12,630 bases of DNA from a bacterium (GTDB taxonomy: Bacteria > Fidelibacterota > Marinisomatia > Marinisomatales > UBA1611): positions 1-12,630 of the forward strand of contig JAYPIC010000045.1 in NCBI GenBank assembly GCA_038127595.1, given 5' to 3'. The notes beneath the pieces are model-generated. The model did no database searches and was not told the origin of the DNA. It worked only from the letters and a program-made list of their open reading frames with translations. Within the stretch, counting starts at the first letter, position 1. Each line of letters begins with the position of its first letter. The position numbers and the translations under genes were made by a program. Positions 3,928 through 12,630 of the stretch are shown here, piece after piece.

Positions 3928-4293
3928 ATGAGATATAGTTACCAAAGAGAAATTATAAGAGAAATCATTTGCTCAACCAAATCACATCCAACAGCAGATT
4001 GGGTTTATTCAGAAGCAAAAAAGAAGATTGATAACATAAGTTTAGGTACTGTATACAGGAATTTGAAAACATTGGAAGAAATTGGATCGATCCAAATAAT
4101 ATATGATGAAAATTTGATTAGATATGACGGAAACACAGAAGAGCACCATCACCTTAAATGTAGTGAGTGTGGAGTTTTAATTGATACGAACATAAAATCA
4201 AATTTTGATGAAAAGGATATAGTTAGCAAATACAATTTCAAACCAGAAAAAACAAAATTTTTCATAATTGGAAAATGTAATAAACATAAATAA
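3928..4293 (+). CDS. perR: Fur-family transcriptional regulator, PerR type
   Basis: SHPTADWVY, ISLGTVYRNL (HTH), RYDGN..EHHHLKCSECG.LID. The His/Asp/His/His/Asp regulatory-metal ligand set of PerR is present. Located between peroxiredoxin and rubrerythrin genes. Confidence 0.85.
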   Translation: MRYSYQREIIREIICSTKSHPTADWVYSEAKKKIDNISLGTVYRNLKTLEEIGSIQIIYDENLIRYDGNTEEHHHLKCSECGVLIDTNIKSNFDEKDIVSKYNFKPEKTKFFIIGKCNKHK

Positions 4294-4306
4294 AAAGGAG
4301 ATAGAA

Positions 4307-4726
4307 ATGAGTTTAGATGGAACCAAAACCCATGAGAATCTAAAGGCAGCTTTTGCTGGAGAATCTCAAGCGAACAGAAGATACCTATATTTTGCTAGAG
4401 CAGCAGACATCGAAGGTTACCCTGAGGCAGCTGGAGTCTTCAAAAATACTGCGGACGGTGAAACTGGTCACGCTTTCGGGCATCTTGAGTTTCTTGAAAA
4501 AGGCGGTGCAGGAGATCCTGCTACAGGCTTAAACATTGGAGAAACTGAAGATAATTTAAAAGCCGCTGTAGCAGGTGAGACGTATGAGTATACAGAAATG
4601 TATCCAGGTTTTGCTGCGACAGCTAGAGAAGAAGGGTTTGATGATATTGCTGAATGGTTTGAAACTCTAGCAAGAGCTGAGAAATCTCATGCTGGAAAAT
4701 TTCAAGAGACCTTAGATTCTTTATAA
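4307..4726 (+). CDS. rbr: Rubrerythrin, short aerobic type (no rubredoxin domain), 139 aa
   Basis: [38 protein letters not shown] and AEKSHA supply the di-iron ligands. No Cys, so no rubredoxin domain. Start moved from TTG 4268 to ATG 4307 because of SD AAGGAG at 4295-4300. Confidence 0.95.
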
Positions 4727-4735
4727 AACTAGATC

Positions 4736-4776
4736 TTAGCATCAATGGGCATATAGTCCATTGATGCTAATTTATT
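4736..4776 (+). terminator. Intra-operon stem-loop after rbr (partial terminator or RNA stabiliser)
   Basis: TTAGCATCAATGGGC-atata-GTCCATTGATGCTAA forms a 15-bp stem with one G.U pair on the + strand. It is followed by TTTATT and then directly by the next SD (GGAGGTGA). Confidence 0.7.
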
Positions 4777-4786
4777 GGAGGTGATT

Positions 4787-6223
4787 ATGCTTAATCATTC
4801 TGATACAAAAGATGCTATATACGACATTACTAATCCTAGCTACTGGGATAAGTCTTCTTTAGATAATGAGCTCAACAGAGTTTACGATATTTGTATAGGT
4901 TGTAGGCTTTGTTTCAACTTATGCCCTTCATTTCCATCATTATTCAATTCCATTGATGGCATTGGCGATGAAAAACGAAGAGAAGCTGAAACCAAAGGGA
5001 TTGTAGAAAAAGAAGACTCAGACCGTGCATATTTAGATCTTCCTGAGGGTGAGCACGCCAGTGAAGCTAGTATTGAGGTTGATTTTCGTGGTGAAGTGAC
5101 CGAGCTTTCTATTGAGCAGAAATGGGAAGTTGTAGATTTATGCTATCAATGTAAATTGTGTGATCCTATCTGTCCTTACACCCCCGGTAAAGAGCATGAG
5201 TTTGAGCTTGATTTTCCTAAGCTGATGACCCGTGCCCAAGCAATCAGGACAAAAGATAGGGGCTTAAAATTAAATGATGTTTTTCTTTCAAAGACTGATT
5301 TATTAGGTACATTGGGTTCATATTTTGGACCGTTAATTAATTTCGTTAATCGTATCAGTATTGTCAGATGGTTCATGGATAAGATAATCGGGATCCATAA
5401 AGATAGAAAGCTTCCAGAACTGGCCACTTTGACTTTTGAGAAATGGTTTAAAAATCATAAGTCTGTAGTTGAAGATCCAATTGATAAAGTTGTTATTTTC
5501 GGTACTTGTTATACTAATTCAAATGATGTAGACCTAGGCATAAGTGCTGTGGAAATCCTAGAACACAATAATGTGGAATGTGTTTACCCCAAACAGCAAT
5601 GTTGTGGCGCGCCGCATTTAAGCCCTGGAGACTTTGATAGTTTCAAAAAACAGGCTGATCCTAATGTTGAAGAACTATATAAATGGGTTTCTAAGGGGTA
5701 CAAGATTATAGTAACAGGTCCGCCTACATGCAGTTTAACTTTAAAATCCGAGTATCCCGATTACTTGGAAATGAGCGATAAAGTAAAGAAGATATCAGAA
5801 AGCACATATGATATATCTGAATATTTAGCAATGTTGAAAAAAGAGGATAAAATCAAAACAGATTTCAAAAACAGCATTGGAACTGTTAATTATCATGTGA
5901 GTTGTCATTTAAAAGCGCAGCGAATCGGCTACAAAAGCAGGGATGTTCTAAGAATGGTTCCTGACACGAAAGTAAATCTGATTAATCAGTGCAGTGGAAT
6001 GGATGGAGGATGGGGAATGAAATCTGAGTTTTTTGAAGAGTCAATGAAAGTAGCTGATAGATGCGTAAATGATATTAGTGCTAAAGAATCTGATGTAGCT
6101 TGCTCAGATTGCTCTCTAGCCAGTCATCAGATAAAACAAGCTAGTGAAGAAAAAATTAAACCAAGCCACCCAATAATTGAGTTACATAAAGCTTATGGCT
6201 TTAATGATAGTGAAAGGAAATAA
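4787..6223 (+). CDS. Rubrerythrin-associated Fe-S oxidoreductase (GlpC/HdrD-like; 2x[4Fe-4S] plus CCG domains)
   Basis: Ferredoxin motifs CIGCRLCFNLCP and CYQCKLCDPICP, then FGTC, QQCCGAP, PTCS, YHVSCH, QCSGMDG and CSDC. ATG 4787 preferred over TTG 4775 because GGAGG lies at 4777-4781. Confidence 0.9.
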   Translation: MLNHSDTKDAIYDITNPSYWDKSSLDNELNRVYDICIGCRLCFNLCPSFPSLFNSIDGIGDEKRREAETKGIVEKEDSDRAYLDLPEGEHASEASIEVDFRGEVTELSIEQKWEVVDLCYQCKLCDPICPYTPGKEHEFELDFPKLMTRAQAIRTKDRGLKLNDVFLSKTDLLGTLGSYFGPLINFVNRISIVRWFMDKIIGIHKDRKLPELATLTFEKWFKNHKSVVEDPIDKVVIFGTCYTNSNDVDLGISAVEILEHNNVECVYPKQQCCGAPHLSPGDFDSFKKQADPNVEELYKWVSKGYKIIVTGPPTCSLTLKSEYPDYLEMSDKVKKISESTYDISEYLAMLKKEDKIKTDFKNSIGTVNYHVSCHLKAQRIGYKSRDVLRMVPDTKVNLINQCSGMDGGWGMKSEFFEESMKVADRCVNDISAKESDVACSDCSLASHQIKQASEEKIKPSHPIIELHKAYGFNDSERK

Positions 6224-6810
6224 TGATGAATACATTAATACAAAAATCTGATTTACTGAATATAATTGATTATGAAAAGCAGAGAGATACCTACAGGTCA
6301 GAATTAATTGATTACAAAAAAAATAGACGATTTAAACTTGGTCCAAATATCCTGATAACATTTGAAAATAGTAAAACGATGAAATTTCAGATACAGGAAA
6401 TGATGAGAGCTGAAAGAATGGTCCATGATAGCCAGATTGAAGAGGAACTAAACGTTTATAATCCATTAATACCTGGTGGTGATGAACTTAGCGCTACGTT
6501 GTTCATTGAAATCACAGATCCGGAAAAAATAAGACCGGTATTAGACAGTTTTATTGGTCTAACTGAAGGTGTAAATGTATTTTTTGAAATCGATGGAGAG
6601 AAGGTAGTAGCAAAATTTGAAGAAGGAAGAGAAAAGGAAGATAATATAAGTTCTGTTCATTATATTAGATTTCCTTTTACCGAACAGCAAAAAAATAATT
6701 TTGTTGAAAATTCAAGTTCAATTTCAATTCATATAGACTATGGTGAATACAGCCACAGCATTGTGCTGGATGACAATATGAAAAATTCACTTGCTGATGA
6801 TTTCATTTAA
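6223..6810 (+). CDS. DUF3501 family protein
   Basis: YEK.R, KK.RR..LG, FEN..T...QIQEM.RAER, YNPLIP...ELSATLFIE and SSVHYIRF. Translationally coupled (TAATG) to the Fe-S gene, in the known rbr / Fe-S oxidoreductase / DUF3501 order. Confidence 0.9.
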   Translation: MMNTLIQKSDLLNIIDYEKQRDTYRSELIDYKKNRRFKLGPNILITFENSKTMKFQIQEMMRAERMVHDSQIEEELNVYNPLIPGGDELSATLFIEITDPEKIRPVLDSFIGLTEGVNVFFEIDGEKVVAKFEEGREKEDNISSVHYIRFPFTEQQKNNFVENSSSISIHIDYGEYSHSIVLDDNMKNSLADDFI

Positions 6811-6911: not shown

Positions 6912-7712
6912 ATGAAAGTTTATATTAGTGCCGATATGGAAGGCATAACTGGTGTAGCTCATTGGGACGAAGTAGATCACAATAAACCTCCATACTCATA
7001 TTTTCAAGAGCAAATGTCTAAAGAGGTCGCAGCTGCATGTGAGGGCGCAAATTTAGCTGGTGCAAAAGAGATATTTGTTAAAGATGCGCATTACTCTGCA
7101 AGAAATATAATCCCATCATTTTTACCAAAAAATGTTAAGATTATCAGGGGATGGAGTGGGCATCCTTCATCAATGGTGCAAGAATTAAATAGTAAGTTTG
7201 ATGCATTGTTAATGGTTGGTTATCATTCAAAAGCAGGAAGTGGTGGTAATCCATTAGCTCATACAATGTCTAGTTCAAAAATTGAACGGATCATTCTGAA
7301 TGATAGGCCCGCTTCAGAGCTATTATTGCATGGTACCATTGCCTCAAAATATCACGTTCCGTTAGTCTTTGTTTCGGGCGATTTTGGCATATGCAAAGAG
7401 ATAAGAAAGATTAACCCCTTAACAATAACACATTGTACAATGCATGGGGTGGGAGATTCTACAATAAGCATGCAGCCTGAACTTTCCATTATGCAGATCA
7501 AGAAAAAAGTTGAAAAAGCTTTGAAATTGGATATGAAATTATGTACGTGGGCACATCCTAATAAATTTAAACTAAAAATTCGATACATGAAGCACGTTGA
7601 TGCCTATAAGGCGTCACAGTACCCAAGTGCAATTATGCTGAATGCAAAATCTATTGTCTACGAAAGTAAGGATTTTGATGATATTATGCGGTTTATATTA
7701 TTTTGTGTTTAA
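6912..7712 (+). CDS. dppA: D-aminopeptidase, peptidase family M55 (DppA)
   Basis: MKVYISADMEGITGV (DxE zinc ligands), VKDAH, SMVQ, VGYH, LAHT, ASE and VFVSGD. No signal peptide. Confidence 0.93.
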   Translation: MKVYISADMEGITGVAHWDEVDHNKPPYSYFQEQMSKEVAAACEGANLAGAKEIFVKDAHYSARNIIPSFLPKNVKIIRGWSGHPSSMVQELNSKFDALLMVGYHSKAGSGGNPLAHTMSSSKIERIILNDRPASELLLHGTIASKYHVPLVFVSGDFGICKEIRKINPLTITHCTMHGVGDSTISMQPELSIMQIKKKVEKALKLDMKLCTWAHPNKFKLKIRYMKHVDAYKASQYPSAIMLNAKSIVYESKDFDDIMRFILFCV

Positions 7713-8408
7713 ATGAATGATTGGATAATAAAAAGCCCTATTCCTGTGGAATGTGATGTATTAAATGAGACGCTACAATTTCCATCAAGAAACATTTATT
7801 GTGTTGGCAGAAATTATAGAGATCATGCCAAAGAGATGGGAGGTGATCCAGAAAGAGAGAAACCATTTTTTTTTCAAAAATCTTCAGATATACTAGTAAA
7901 AAATGGCTCCGAGTTCATATATCCAAATGATACTAGCGATCTTCAATATGAGGTCGAACTAGTAGTAGCAATATCTCAAGATGCCTTTAAAGTAGGTTCA
8001 AGTGAAGCAAAAAATATAATATTTGGCTACGCTGTCGGAGTTGACATTACTAAGAGGGACTTGCAGAAAATTTCCAAAGATAGCGGGAAACCATGGTTTT
8101 CAGCTAAAGTTTTTTACGGTTCAGCTATGATATCTGATATAGTTCCAAAAGAGGATTCTTATTATCCTGAGGATATAAAAATTTCCTTAGAAGTAAATGG
8201 AAAAAGAAAGCAATTCACTGGTTGTAATAACATGATTTGGAATGTCTTCGAATTAATATCCATTTTATCCCAAACAATTCCTTTAAAAGCTGGCGACCTT
8301 ATTTTTACTGGCACCCCTGCAGGTGTGGGGCAGTTGCAAAAAGGTGATGTTGTTGAAGCAAAATTAATTCAAAATAATTCTACTTCATTGTCATTCGTGG
8401 TTAAATAA
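7713..8408 (+). CDS. Fumarylacetoacetate hydrolase family protein (FAHD1/YcgM/NagK-like)
   Basis: IYCVGRNYRDHAKEMG, PFFFQK, YEVELVVAI, GYAVGVDITKRDLQ, KPW..AK and LKAGDLIFTGTPAGVG. Confidence 0.93.
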   Translation: MNDWIIKSPIPVECDVLNETLQFPSRNIYCVGRNYRDHAKEMGGDPEREKPFFFQKSSDILVKNGSEFIYPNDTSDLQYEVELVVAISQDAFKVGSSEAKNIIFGYAVGVDITKRDLQKISKDSGKPWFSAKVFYGSAMISDIVPKEDSYYPEDIKISLEVNGKRKQFTGCNNMIWNVFELISILSQTIPLKAGDLIFTGTPAGVGQLQKGDVVEAKLIQNNSTSLSFVVK

Positions 8409-8411
8409 AAT

Positions 8412-9233
8412 ATGAGAATATTATTTTTTTTCATCTTACTTTTTTCATGTAATGCTCAGGATCCATACGATTGGGTCAGATCGCTTCCGAAGCCTTGGAC
8501 AATAGATGAAAGTGAGTATGATGAAATACTTCCAAATTTTATAAAATATTTTCCTGACTTTGATGATAGGCTAAAAGCCATTAACATATGGAGAATAGGT
8601 ACTCCATATGGAATATTTAAATCTGGAGAGGAAAAAGAGCCAGATTTAGACCCAATATTGAGAATCGATACAACCGATTGTACTATACATGTCCTTACTA
8701 GTATTGCAATGAATTCAAGTAGAAGTTGGGGTGAAACAAAAAATAAGATGATTGACATTCATTATAAACCTAATGAGCAAAATATAAAGCAGCCTGAGTA
8801 CAAAAATAGGTGGCATTATACATCTGATAGAATATTGAATAATCCATACACTGTAAATATCACAAATGAATTAGCCTCAAAAAATGAGCTTGAAGAAATC
8901 GAATTGACACTAAATGAGAAAAGTGATGGAAGTGAGTTTTTAAAACTAAACTGGAATTTGAATGGCAGATTCAAATTCATTCGTTCAGAATTTGTTGACG
9001 ATCAGTTGCTTGAAAAATTACCACCAGTGTGTGGGGTTGCCTTTGTAAAAAAAGCATATGTAAAAAATGGAATTTTAATCGCTCATGAGGGTTTTGTGAT
9101 TGATCAAAAAACCTTGATTCATGCTTCCTCTGCCAGTAAAAAAACAATTCAGGAAGATTTATTAAATTATTTAAGTGGTAAAAAAGAATCAAAATTTGAC
9201 GGTGTAATGTTTTACAAAATATCTTCAATATAA
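8412..9233 (+). CDS. DUF1460 / NlpC-P60 N-acetylmuramoyl-L-alanine amidase-like protein, predicted lipoprotein
   Basis: IGTPY, LRIDTTDCTIHV (catalytic Cys), Y..RWHYTSD, IAHEG (catalytic His) and LIHASS. N-terminus MRILFFFILLFS-C13. Confidence 0.78.
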   Translation: MRILFFFILLFSCNAQDPYDWVRSLPKPWTIDESEYDEILPNFIKYFPDFDDRLKAINIWRIGTPYGIFKSGEEKEPDLDPILRIDTTDCTIHVLTSIAMNSSRSWGETKNKMIDIHYKPNEQNIKQPEYKNRWHYTSDRILNNPYTVNITNELASKNELEEIELTLNEKSDGSEFLKLNWNLNGRFKFIRSEFVDDQLLEKLPPVCGVAFVKKAYVKNGILIAHEGFVIDQKTLIHASSASKKTIQEDLLNYLSGKKESKFDGVMFYKISSI

Positions 9234-9250
9234 CATATTTCTGCAAGGCC

Positions 9251-10285
9251 TTGAATCTTCATAAAATCACTTTCTTTTATCTTATACTAGCTATAATGAT
9301 TTTTTCTTGCAGTTCAGATTCAAAATTAGAACTAGTGAAACCGGCAAGGTTGGAGGTGGGTGATACAATAGCATTTTGTGCGCCCTCAGGATTTTTAGAT
9401 TCTTCAAGAATGTCCGTAGCTAAAAAAAGGTTAATAGAAAAAGGATTCCACATAGTCTATGATGATTCTCTTTTCCGAAACTGGGGATATTTAGCTGGGA
9501 AAGATATAATCCGAGCTAATGAGCTAATGACATACTTTGAAGATAAAAGTGTAAAAGCAATTTTTCCTGGCACAGGCGGGTACGGCGCCACTAGAATATT
9601 ATCACTTCTTGATTATAACATTATAAATGATAATCCAAAAATTTTTATCGGCTTTAGTGACATAACAGCTCTTCACATTGCATTTAATGGTCTATCAAAA
9701 CTAGTTACTTTTCATACTCCTAACCCAATGTATGGTCTTGGTAGTGATAAAGGTCTAGAGCCTATATCCGAGTTGTATTTTTGGTCACTTCTTATGAACA
9801 GTGAGGATGATTATGAAATTCCATTTGATATTTATGGTGATTCTCTCAAAGTAAAAACATTGGTTGAAGGAGTATCATCGGGTATCCTTGTTGGTGGTAA
9901 TTTGTCTTTAATTTGCTCTGCCATGGGCTCTATGTATGAGATATCTACAGGTAATTCAATATTATTCATCGAAGATGTTGGTGAGTCCCCATATAGAGTA
10001 GATAGGTATCTTCAAGAACTTAAATTGGCAGGTAAGTTTGATGGTGTCAAAGGGGTAGTAATCGGAAGGTTCTCAAGAAGAAGAAGCGAGGCACCTGATA
10101 AACCAACTGATTTTACAATGGAAGAGGTTTTTAAACAGTATTTTTCAAAATCTGAATTTCCTGTAATTTATAATTTTCCATCTGGCCATGGCGCTAAGAA
10201 CATTTCCCTTCCATTAGGAATTCTCGCTGAGATAAATACAGATACTCAGGTATTCAGACTTCTTGAATCCCCTGTTAGAAATTAA
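9251..10285 (+). CDS. ldcA: LD-carboxypeptidase (peptidase S66), predicted lipoprotein
   Basis: L..GDTIAFCAPS, YLAG.D..RA.EL, GGYGATRIL, FIGFSDIT (Ser), GGNLS, IEDVGE (Glu) and SGHG (His). N-terminus MNLHKITFFYLILAIMIFS-C20. TTG start. Confidence 0.92.
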   Translation: MNLHKITFFYLILAIMIFSCSSDSKLELVKPARLEVGDTIAFCAPSGFLDSSRMSVAKKRLIEKGFHIVYDDSLFRNWGYLAGKDIIRANELMTYFEDKSVKAIFPGTGGYGATRILSLLDYNIINDNPKIFIGFSDITALHIAFNGLSKLVTFHTPNPMYGLGSDKGLEPISELYFWSLLMNSEDDYEIPFDIYGDSLKVKTLVEGVSSGILVGGNLSLICSAMGSMYEISTGNSILFIEDVGESPYRVDRYLQELKLAGKFDGVKGVVIGRFSRRRSEAPDKPTDFTMEEVFKQYFSKSEFPVIYNFPSGHGAKNISLPLGILAEINTDTQVFRLLESPVRN

Positions 10286-11514
10286 TGTTAAAATATTTCA
10301 TTTGTTTGATTATCATGATGAACATGTCCTGCAGTACAAACCAAAGTGAAAATATTTTGAATGAAATCATCGATAGTATGGGAGCTGAATTTCCAAATGT
10401 AGTTAGAAGCCCAGAAAAACACCGTTTGCAGATCCTTTACACTCAAATAAATAGAAATCAAAAAAATGAACCCACTTTCAAAACATTTTCATTTGGTGTT
10501 GACAAATCTAGGTATTTTTACCCAGCTAGCTCAACTAAGCTTCCTATTGCAGTATTAGCTGTAGAAAAAGCTAGAATGATAAGTGAAATTGATATTTATG
10601 ATAAGTTTCAGATTTTGCCTGGGCCAGTTTATAGAAATGGCGTTAATAAGGATATTAGCTCTGAGACTGGTTATCCTAGTTTAGCTCATTCAATTAGGAA
10701 TCTATTTATCATATCTGATAATTCAGCTAATAATTATTTGTATGACTTTTTAGGAAGAGATTTTATAAATGAAAGATTATGGGATCTTAGCCTTAATAGT
10801 ACAAGAATAAGGCACCGTTTAAGTATTAGTCTTTCTGATGAGGAGAATAGATTTACTCACCCAATGAATTTTTATGATAAATCAAAAATTATTTATAAGC
10901 AAGAAAGTCAAATAGCTTCTATTCCTCTTGAATTGAATGTAAAAGATTACAAAATTGGTAAATATCATTTTTATGAAGGAGAGAAAAAAGAGGGCCCTTT
11001 AGATTTTAGTTCAAAAAATTATATGAATTTGCCAGAACAGCATGAGCTTCTCAAGCGTATAATATTTCCAAAAAATTATGCAAAGGAAGAGCAGTTTAGC
11101 TTAAGTGAAAGTGATTATCAGTTTCTATATAGAGAAATGTCAATTCTGCCTAGGCAGAGTGATTACCCTAGATTCCCAGATTATGATAAACATTATGATG
11201 GTTATTGTAAGTTCTTTTTATACGGCGACACTAAAGACAAAATCCCAGATAATGTAAAAATTTTTAATAAGGTTGGGCTAGCTTACGGTTTCGTGGTAGA
11301 TAATGCTTACATTGTCGATACCAAAAATAATATTGAATTTTTATTGACTGCGGTTATTTACAGTAATTCCAATCAAACGATGAATGATGATGAATACGAT
11401 TATGAAAAAATTTCTATACCTTTTCTTGCCAGCCTTGGAAGGAAAATTTATGATCTCGAGTTAAAAAGATATAAAAAAGTGTTTCCAGACCTTCAATATT
11501 TTAAAAATCTTTAG
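10285..11514 (+). CDS. Serine hydrolase with class A beta-lactamase/PBP fold, predicted lipoprotein
   Basis: YFYPASSTKLP (SxxK), IISDNSANN (SDN) and IFNKVG.AYG (KTG-equivalent). N-terminus MLKYFICLIIMMNMS-C16. Coupled to ldcA by TAATG. Confidence 0.82.
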   Translation: MLKYFICLIIMMNMSCSTNQSENILNEIIDSMGAEFPNVVRSPEKHRLQILYTQINRNQKNEPTFKTFSFGVDKSRYFYPASSTKLPIAVLAVEKARMISEIDIYDKFQILPGPVYRNGVNKDISSETGYPSLAHSIRNLFIISDNSANNYLYDFLGRDFINERLWDLSLNSTRIRHRLSISLSDEENRFTHPMNFYDKSKIIYKQESQIASIPLELNVKDYKIGKYHFYEGEKKEGPLDFSSKNYMNLPEQHELLKRIIFPKNYAKEEQFSLSESDYQFLYREMSILPRQSDYPRFPDYDKHYDGYCKFFLYGDTKDKIPDNVKIFNKVGLAYGFVVDNAYIVDTKNNIEFLLTAVIYSNSNQTMNDDEYDYEKISIPFLASLGRKIYDLELKRYKKVFPDLQYFKNL

Positions 11515-11660: not shown

Positions 11661-12630
11661 GTGAAAAATTTAATAATTTTATTCAGTTTTATCAGTCTTT
11701 TATTGTCGAACTCTGTTGTGATTAATGCCATTAATCATACTAAACATGAAAACGTTTGGATCACAGCCAATGACAAGAATTTGATTAAATTATCAGATTT
11801 TGAAAAAATATCTAGGATTGCTCGAGTTTCTCCTGTGACAACATTAGCTGTTCACGTTGCAGATGAATTAGTTTTTAAGTCTGATTACAGATTTAGAAAC
11901 GGAACCTTACATACAATACATATCGACGAACAAAGGGAAGTTGATCAACCTCAAAACAAATTTCGTGTAAGGGTAGAGCAATTTAATCCAACTTTAGATG
12001 AGCCATTTTATTCTTTGGACCCTTTGACTTTTCAAAGTCAATCTGTTGAATTAAATGATCAAGGCCAATTCAAAGATATCAAGGTTGAGCGAGACAACGC
12101 TGACATACTTGAAACTGCAAACGTACAAATTATTCACAATTCTCCATATCCAGTTGTGGATATTTATGTTGATGATGCAGAAGCACTAGGTGATGTACCA
12201 TTTAGAGCAGCAACAGGAATGATACAACTTCCAATATCAACTACTGTAGGTATCGCTCCAGCCAATGGCGATGTAATCGCAAATTTTCCTTTTGCATTAG
12301 AAACTAATGGAAATTACGTAGTATCAGCATCCGGAATTTTAGGCAACGATGCGACTCCATTTGGCTTAGTGGCATCAGGCCTTGAGTTAGCAGCAGTAGA
12401 TACCAATCATTTTGGTTTAAAAGTTTTTCATGGCGTAACAGATGCGCCTGCTGTTGATATTTATGCTAATGGAAATTTGCTGGTAGAAAACCTTGGTTAC
12501 AATGAGTATGAAGGATACGTTCAAGTGCCTGTTGGTGATTATACCATTGATGTCACTGCTCATGGATCAGATCAGTCAGTAGCTTCGTTTGCTGCTCCTC
12601 TCTCAGGTTTTGGTGGAGGAACAGGTATTG
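11661..12630 (+). CDS. Secreted DUF4397 domain-containing protein, 5' part; runs off the window
   Basis: GTG at 11661 with SD AAAGGAAG. The frame is open to the window end (323 codons). Signal-like MKNLIILFSFISLLLS. Two related units: ANVQIIHNSPYPVVDIYVDD (from 12117) and LKVFHGVTDAPAVDIYANG...YVQVPVGDYTIDV (from 12417). Not in the ORF track. Confidence 0.85.
   Translation, partial: MKNLIILFSFISLLLSNSVVINAINHTKHENVWITANDKNLIKLSDFEKISRIARVSPVTTLAVHVADELVFKSDYRFRNGTLHTIHIDEQREVDQPQNKFRVRVEQFNPTLDEPFYSLDPLTFQSQSVELNDQGQFKDIKVERDNADILETANVQIIHNSPYPVVDIYVDDAEALGDVPFRAATGMIQLPISTTVGIAPANGDVIANFPFALETNGNYVVSASGILGNDATPFGLVASGLELAAVDTNHFGLKVFHGVTDAPAVDIYANGNLLVENLGYNEYEGYVQVPVGDYTIDVTAHGSDQSVASFAAPLSGFGGGTGI

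Follow-up and report, generated by a model that had tools for sequence, protein, structure and literature searches.

A five-gene run in a Marinisomatota genome as a probable composite of three murein-stem enzymes and an M55-FAH pair

Does a tight run of five co-oriented genes encode a single pathway? This question is raised by a stretch of 12,630 nucleotides (the window) that forms contig C45 of a Marinisomatota (SAR406) metagenome-assembled genome, the source genome G000 (2.0 Mb, 33% guanine plus cytosine, 95.8% complete, 133 contigs). The genes encode an M55 peptidase, an FAH-superfamily protein, an AmiA-like amidase, an S66 peptidase and a class-A-fold serine hydrolase (the hydrolase), and the initial annotation read them as one pathway for scavenging peptidoglycan stem peptides and D-amino acids. 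Our analysis favours another answer. The run is probably a composite, in which three probably exported enzymes would strip the stems of foreign muropeptides and the M55-FAH pair was joined to them by a rearrangement. The case illustrates that, where genes are densely packed, what looks like an orderly five-gene 'pathway' can consist of two modules brought together by such a rearrangement. The features are as follows.

6912-7712, + strand: M55 D-aminopeptidase (DppA-like), 266 aa; Pfam PF04951
7713-8408, + strand: FAH-superfamily hydrolase (fumarylpyruvate hydrolase / FAHD1 / YcgM-like), 231 aa; Pfam PF01557
8405-8415, no strand: FAH-AmiA junction with a 3-nt gap, putative scar of a genus-level reciprocal rearrangement
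8412-9233, + strand: AmiA-like (DUF1460) NlpC/P60 cysteine amidase, predicted lipoprotein, 273 aa; PF07313
9251-10285, + strand: S66 peptidase, predicted lipoprotein, 344 aa, TTG start; PF02016+PF17676
10285-11514, + strand: class-A-fold SxxK serine hydrolase, probably exported, 409 aa; PF13354 (Beta-lactamase2)

All five proteins passed the Pfam cut-offs of their families (Peptidase_M55, FAA_hydrolase, AmiA-like (DUF1460), S66 N- and C-terminal, Beta-lactamase2). The coordinates of the five open reading frames (ORFs) agree exactly with the gaps of 0, 3, 17 and -1 nt described initially. Such spacing is ordinary in G000, where 858 of the 1599 pairs of neighbouring ORFs share an orientation and have gaps <=20 nt, and 461 of 1732 ORFs sit in tight co-oriented runs of at least five; these counts used longest-ORF starts, which shorten gaps. 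Because tight runs are common in this genome, the spacing is no evidence for a functional unit.

Conservation of the gene order and the FAH-AmiA junction

Homologues of the enzymes were found in many of the 61 related genomes (AmiA in 47, FAH in 40 at E<=1e-20, S66 in 37, M55 in 36 and the hydrolase in 12). The run is complete and in order in three of the nine genomes of the genus (G000, G003 and G005), and it was not seen outside the genus. Two further members (G002 and G007) keep the first four genes in order and carry the hydrolase elsewhere, beside a GHL10 gene. Contig ends interrupt the run in G006 and G001, and neither M55 nor AmiA was seen in G004 and G008, which are 63% and 81% complete.

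M55 and FAH are adjacent in 19 of the 25 family genomes with M55 and in none of 11 outside the family. Twenty-nine genomes outside the genus carry M55; 22 of these loci were examined, and 21 show the next gene after M55 or M55-FAH. This gene is c43-like in 11 loci, a chorismate mutase/trp gene in five, a Na-sulfate symporter gene in one and unannotated in four, and a homologue of the murein clusters was found in none of the 21 (four being unannotated). The c43 gene is an unannotated gene for about 280 aa that often lies with ABC and M1 peptidase genes; the M55(-FAH)-c43 order occurs in 11 non-genus genomes of eight genera. AmiA has an older partner of its own, since NagZ-BL, a GH3-beta-lactamase fusion, directly precedes it in 10 of 30 non-genus AmiA loci from six families. 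Two genomes (G015 and G035) each carry both older arrangements. Inside the genus, the FAH-AmiA junction is present in six genomes, and the order NagZ-BL-c43-FA hydroxylase-ABC in all five genomes where c43 was found (G000, G002, G003, G006 and G007).

The simplest reading of these patterns is that the junction partners were likely swapped by one reciprocal rearrangement in the ancestor of the genus. M55 and FAH would then stand here without a functional link, because the rearrangement joined them to AmiA; later selection may have acted on the rearranged order. Conservation of the gene neighbourhood was one of the checks initially proposed for a single pathway. M55-FAH joins AmiA only in this genus and the order is not kept outside it, which speaks largely against five genes as one conserved pathway.

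The same question was addressed in a sample of 251 genomes of the phylum, in which M55 was found in 117, AmiA in 164 and S66 in 133. Co-location was judged from the matches listed (122 of 127 for M55, five fragments being dropped, 150 of 200 for AmiA and 150 of 204 for S66). Of the 64 phylum genomes in which both were listed, only G002 and G007 have M55 within 20 kb of AmiA, although the test is weak since most gene pairs are on different contigs. The sole non-genus M55-S66 pair within 20 kb among the matches listed is in G179, at 19 kb; there S66 lies beside LysA, GH18 and NagB, and M55 lies apart.

The M55 protein itself is well supported as a family member (271.5 bits against PF04951, cut-off 25). 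Its D8, E10, H60, H105, H117 and E136 align in register with B. subtilis DppA (1HI9), and we take these residues to have metal-binding and catalytic roles. We also take dppA to be the first dpp gene, with which the name of PDB entry 1HI9 agrees. The score is below the NCBIfam DppA equivalog cut-off (144.7 vs 430 bits). M55/DppA is described as a family of D-stereospecific aminopeptidases (PMC2651629). The best structures for FAH are 4MAQ, a putative fumarylpyruvate hydrolase (1.8e-54), and FAHD1 (7e-37), and a murein link was not found for FAH in any genomic context examined. We know of no murein role for this family. M55 is likely a passenger here from an older M55-FAH cassette, and both proteins are probably passengers beside the murein trio.

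Directly upstream of M55, at window positions 3928-6810, lies a cassette of PerR/Fur, rubrerythrin, a CCG Fe-S protein and DUF3501, which is also found upstream of M55-FAH in G016, G030 and G031. A scan of the stretch for promoters and terminators gave counts at chance level. Part of the stretch is contained in 12 RNA runs, four of which were examined, all as assembled contigs. Such contigs cover all five genes; they cannot show a single transcript or rank the genes, and they were not used as evidence. They bridge DUF3501-M55-FAH (X3), FAH-AmiA (X1 and X3), AmiA-S66 (X1) and S66-hydrolase (X6), and their summed depth dropped after FAH in X1-X3 and not in X6.

The three probably exported enzymes

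Three lipoprotein signals had been assigned to the run, with M55 and FAH lacking one. By a simple regex and hydrophobicity heuristic, the hydrophobic N-termini of AmiA (ending LFSC13) and S66 (ending IFSC20) bore this out, and no such N-terminus was found on M55 or FAH. The signal of the hydrolase is less typical: its N-terminus is hydrophobic with Cys16, but the box is an atypical NMSC that the regex missed.

AmiA scored 66.4 bits against PF07313 (cut-off 27), and its C90, H225 and H237 are invariant in 15 of 15 homologues. Its profile matches the solved structures 2IM9, 2P1G and 4H4J/4Q5K/4Q68, with the catalytic Cys and His aligned to DC and H of 2IM9 and 2P1G; similarity to BuAmiA is remote (E 5.9e-4). 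Single-sequence searches of the PDB with AmiA and with the hydrolase gave nothing significant, whereas profile searches gave matches. From these similarities, AmiA likely releases stem peptides from muropeptides. In family f2, AmiA lies within open frames of about 669 aa (G052:C113:35349-36083 and G209:C36), suggesting a fusion.

S66 has the triad S136, E241 and H313 and both Pfam domains (PF02016 and PF17676). In a tree, the exported S66 proteins form a separate branch (support 1.0), apart from a signal-less paralogue on C33. S66 is likely an LD-carboxypeptidase.

The hydrolase carries S82xxK85 in 114 of 116 sequences, followed by S144-D-N146 and K329-V-G331. Of the SxxK, SxN and KTG motifs initially reported, the first two stand and the third is KVG. 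The two positions that could correspond to Glu166 in alternative registers (176 and 180) hold no conserved Glu among the 116 sequences. The structure model (predicted local distance difference test score 95.9) has its top Foldseek matches in the class A beta-lactamase fold, at 10-15% identity and with about 130 extra residues. The 50 best ranks shown all belong to class A beta-lactamases or to close kin such as BlaB, and closeness to DD-peptidases was judged by Foldseek only. The hydrolase is predicted to be a stem-peptide DD-peptidase rather than a beta-lactamase. It shares the fold, SxxK and SDN with Tll2115/PBP-A (2J7V), BlaB (2WUQ) and 4EWF, from which it differs by KVG as third motif, the extra residues and the low identity, and it has no solved close relative; Tll2115 is, we believe, a penicillin-binding protein without Glu166.

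The hydrolase family comprises 561 clusters at E<=1e-30, labelled in databases only as 'serine hydrolase' or 'beta-lactamase', and an ESM Atlas search gave generic names only. Neighbourhoods were analysed for the best 80 of 599 confirmed loci. A murein catabolic gene lies within 7 kb in 25 of the 80 (Bacteroidota, Gammaproteobacteria and Marinisomatota), a raw count with no shuffled control and among kin that are not independent. In those 25 loci the neighbours are an epimerase (13), SH3-NlpC (10), S66 (7), DacB (6), NagZ-BL (3) and DUF1611 (3). S66 is directly upstream of the hydrolase in three of the 80, AmiA is present in one, and M55 or an FAH orthologue in none. A stem-peptidase role, if true, would correct many annotations, and this uncharacterised family is worth following.

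In three relatives the hydrolase forms the C-terminal part of a fusion with an SSF transporter, a sodium:solute symporter (L043:5448-8072, L042:3272-5899 and L069:3421-5934), and these fusion genes lie downstream of a gene for an Amidase_3-Ig protein. Woeseiaceae-type loci (L143, L146 and L155) hold S66, the hydrolase and an M20 peptidase together with alanine racemase, a PF00144 hydrolase, an NhaC-family transporter, a LysA-like protein and an RpiR regulator. We read them as an independent stem-peptide cluster.

Outside the genus, 26 of 30 AmiA loci have a murein, amino-sugar or diaminopimelate (DAP) gene within three genes, counting NagZ-BL/NagZ, NamZ, AnmK, DacB, SH3-NlpC/P60, Amidase_3, LysA and NagB-like. 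In G027, AmiA, S66 and the hydrolase share one orientation inside a 13-kb stretch, and in G013 the distance between S66 and the hydrolase is 3 kb. Genes of the trio also cluster in relatives with those for LysA, a NagB-like protein, TonB-dependent receptors and proteins whose C-terminal domains are of the secretion type. These independent neighbourhoods support the initial view of the three as murein-degrading enzymes, which are part of a toolkit for murein degradation that recurs throughout the order.

A second block on C33 of G000 has the order GATase-DacB-S66-SpmA-SpmB-APC permease (L079:4278-9805). The block (GATase)-DacB(S13)-S66-SpmA-SpmB-(VanX)-(S66)-APC permease recurs across the order (L044, L045, L047, L050 and L098-L100), and in four genomes (G011, G025, G030 and G033) SpmB and a D-Ala-D-Ala dipeptidase form one fusion protein. 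This hints that SpmAB may move D-Ala or wall peptides.

Muropeptide use and the supply of DAP and lysine

Other steps of muropeptide use have candidates outside the window. G000 encodes there two NamZ proteins, NagZ-type GH3s, SH3-NlpC/P60, VanX, alanine racemase, LysA, MurQ and a NagB-like protein, as well as DUF1611 with an epimerase. It also has Amidase_2 and M14 proteins whose C-terminal domains are of the secretion type. The initial annotation held that the five genes cover most bonds of a stem peptide. This did not hold: the candidate γ-D-Glu-mDAP peptidase (mDAP, meso-DAP), SH3-NlpC on C6, and the candidate epimerase on C26 lie on other contigs. The initial statement that no gene of the AmpG/AmpD/Mpl route is in the window holds in part for the whole genome. 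AnmK, AmpG, Mpl and NagA gave nothing over cut-off in G000, but the Amidase_2 protein, of the AmpD family, exists elsewhere in the genome.

Neither hidden Markov models nor tblastn found DapA, DapB, DapD, DapF or Asd in G000. The E. coli DapA, DapB and DapF proteins had no tblastn match at E<=1, while MurE does match; the G000 MurE has DNPR in register with E. coli MurE, which we take to be the motif of DAP-type enzymes. DapB_C was found in none of the 61 genomes (positive controls scored in 11 of 14), and DHDPS-family proteins in 12 of the 61 and in none of the nine of the genus. LysA is over cut-off in 37 of the 61. LysX was over cut-off in none of five genomes, other aminoadipate genes not being searched for. 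The one CysK homologue of G000 (39% to E. coli) cannot separate lanthionine synthase from cysteine synthase. If the wall were of the lanthionine type, foreign mDAP would be all that is left for LysA. Since no dap pathway was found, the mDAP that reaches LysA would have to be foreign, and foreign cell-wall debris, proposed initially as the source, is plausible to this extent.

The enzymes can be arranged in a scheme. Muropeptides from other bacteria would enter the periplasm, possibly through a TonB-dependent receptor locus with NamZ, GH18 and Amidase_2 on C3. AmiA would cut the bond between N-acetylmuramic acid (MurNAc) and L-Ala, and S66 would remove D-Ala4. For the SxxK hydrolase, D-Ala-D-Ala or D-Ala-mDAP cross-links are the most likely substrates, with about an even chance of being right. 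SH3-NlpC/P60 or M14, encoded elsewhere, would free mDAP, which LysA would convert to lysine. L-Ala-D-Glu would go to the epimerase/DUF1611 pair, D-Ala to VanX and alanine racemase, and the sugar to MurQ and the NagB-like protein. Because the mDAP would have to be foreign, the gain is likely lysine, and perhaps mDAP for the wall, as well as carbon and nitrogen; this link to the mDAP and lysine supply is worth following. M55 could hydrolyse D-Ala peptides from the muropeptide flux, and its position in the run is no evidence for that. A bolder form of this scheme is put forward tentatively: aerobic ocean Marinisomatales would build their own wall, lack a DAP pathway and take mDAP and lysine only from foreign muropeptides at the surface, with the trio as a stem-stripping module and the hydrolase as founder of a widespread family of stem-peptide DD-peptidases.

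The C3 locus of G000 (L073:4371-18436) has LysA-GH18-NamZ facing a block of TonB-dependent receptor, PorV-like and Amidase_2 genes. On C127 (L081:616-1620), an unannotated 335-aa protein is encoded between GH3 and SpoIID; its N-terminus recalls, we presume, MurK/BadF-type sugar kinases, which would make it a candidate for the MurNAc kinase of a genome that has MurQ but in which AnmK was not found. With E. coli GlmU as query, the best G000 match was partial and not convincing (E 0.003), although MurA and GlmS are present.

Known systems, rival explanations and the downstream flank

Parts of this picture are known. Fidelibacter multiformis IA91, of the same phylum, uses exogenous muropeptides for its wall, energy and carbon and is unable to make DAP, lysine, MurNAc, D-Ala or D-Glu (PMC11652737). 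Like IA91, G000 shows no dap genes and has MurQ; unlike it, G000 has MurA, MurI, Ddl, alanine racemase and GlmS. By its gene content it is not a full IA91-type auxotroph, as genes for MurNAc, D-Ala and D-Glu synthesis are present. The part of the IA91 account available names none of the five genes (PMC11652737). In B. subtilis, ykfABCD adjoins dppB-E and is read as serving wall-peptide catabolism for carbon or nitrogen (PMC2954226, PMC3305447). M55, S66 and an NlpC/P60-fold enzyme share one locus there as here. However, the B. subtilis enzymes are cytoplasmic, their NlpC/P60 member is YkfC, a DL-endopeptidase, and the locus includes an ABC transporter and an epimerase, whereas in G000 the NlpC/P60 enzyme is an AmiA amidase, S66 is predicted to be exported, and transporter and epimerase are elsewhere (no peptide ABC transporter, epimerase or YkfC was found within the window). 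In Bacteroides, an AmiA-YkfC-YkfB route has been postulated, as self-recycling (PMC4600125). There too AmiA frees the stem outside the cytoplasm, followed by D-Ala4 removal, DL-cleavage and epimerisation, steps for each of which G000 has candidates; D-Ala removal in Bacteroides falls to an alpha/beta hydrolase domain fused to AmiA, and in G000 to a separate S66. The locus resembles the front end of known routes and is not a member of the dpp-ykf type.

The initial claim that the combination is undescribed was too broad, given ykfABCD beside dpp (PMC2954226, PMC3305447) and muropeptide use in the phylum (PMC11652737). The gene run itself was not found described in the literature on DUF1460 amidases, ykf/dpp, M55/DppA, Marinisomatota peptidoglycan and DAP scavenging; the original AmiA and IA91 papers were outside this scope and may bear on novelty. 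Peptidoglycan debris is a proposed deep-sea nutrient pool (PMC11044484). SAR406 is widespread in the deep sea, and named exported stem-cleaving enzymes in genomes without a DAP pathway make this diet testable with purified proteins.

The composite is probable rather than certain, and several observations weigh against it. The direction of the swap is taken from taxonomic labels and not from a rooted tree, and the order M55-FAH-AmiA-S66 persists at only 64-80% protein identity, which selection could explain. Among solved structures, S66 matches MccF-like proteins best (1e-32) and E. coli LdcA less well (1.6e-25), and its score is below the NCBIfam LdcA cut-off (143.9 vs 378). As many as 55 of the 80 hydrolase loci have no murein neighbour, and the remaining 25 carry the limits given with that count. 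The sugar route is incomplete as assembled, with no AmpG, AnmK or NagA found and one in-frame stop in the GH3 part of NagZ-BL on C86 (L075:3591-6536), a pseudogene or an assembly error. G000 is not a full wall auxotroph, as it encodes MurA (50% identity to E. coli), Ddl (39%), MurI (32%) and GlmS (45%) with a full dcw cluster. AmiA-type enzymes have been proposed for self-recycling in Bacteroides (PMC4600125).

The last two points lead to the possibility that the three exported enzymes serve turnover of the cell's own wall, as periplasmic self-recycling or remodelling, instead of foreign debris. In the account of the Bacteroides recycling route, of which AmiA is part, the enzyme is specific for turnover products (PMC4600125), and G000 has the dcw cluster, MurA, MurI, Ddl and GlmS. 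However, Mpl is not over cut-off and AmpG was not found to return fragments, and the LysA, NagB-like, receptor and secretion-type genes that cluster with the trio in relatives do not fit this role, which we regard as rather unlikely. It is unlikely that all five genes form a selected, co-regulated operon for stem peptides and D-amino acids, a Gram-negative analogue of B. subtilis dppA-ykfABCD in which the rearrangement was kept as it couples M55 to exported enzymes. The absence of a murein gene after M55 in the 21 non-genus loci, the rarity of close M55-AmiA pairs among the matches listed for the phylum, the lack of M55 and FAH from the 80 hydrolase loci, the frequency of tight runs and an FAH family without a murein role known to us all argue against it. 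In its favour, M55-FAH-AmiA-S66 is kept in G000, G002, G003, G005 and G007 at 64-99% identity, M55 is of a D-stereospecific family (PMC2651629), and ykfA-D adjoin the dpp operon (PMC2954226). Finally, S66 might be a detoxifying, MccF-like enzyme and the SxxK protein a true beta-lactamase, as the best structure matches of both would have it. The neighbourhood of S66 favours a murein role against these structure scores. For the hydrolase, the missing Glu166 equivalent in either register, the 10-15% identity, the extra residues and the recurrence of epimerase, YkfC-like, DacB and S66 genes at its loci make a non-murein role very improbable.

Downstream of the run, a gene for a DUF4397 protein with a secretion-type C-terminal domain, which G003 lacks at the corresponding place, is split over the contig break (window 11661-12630 and G000 C33:43-408); therefore C33 continues C45.

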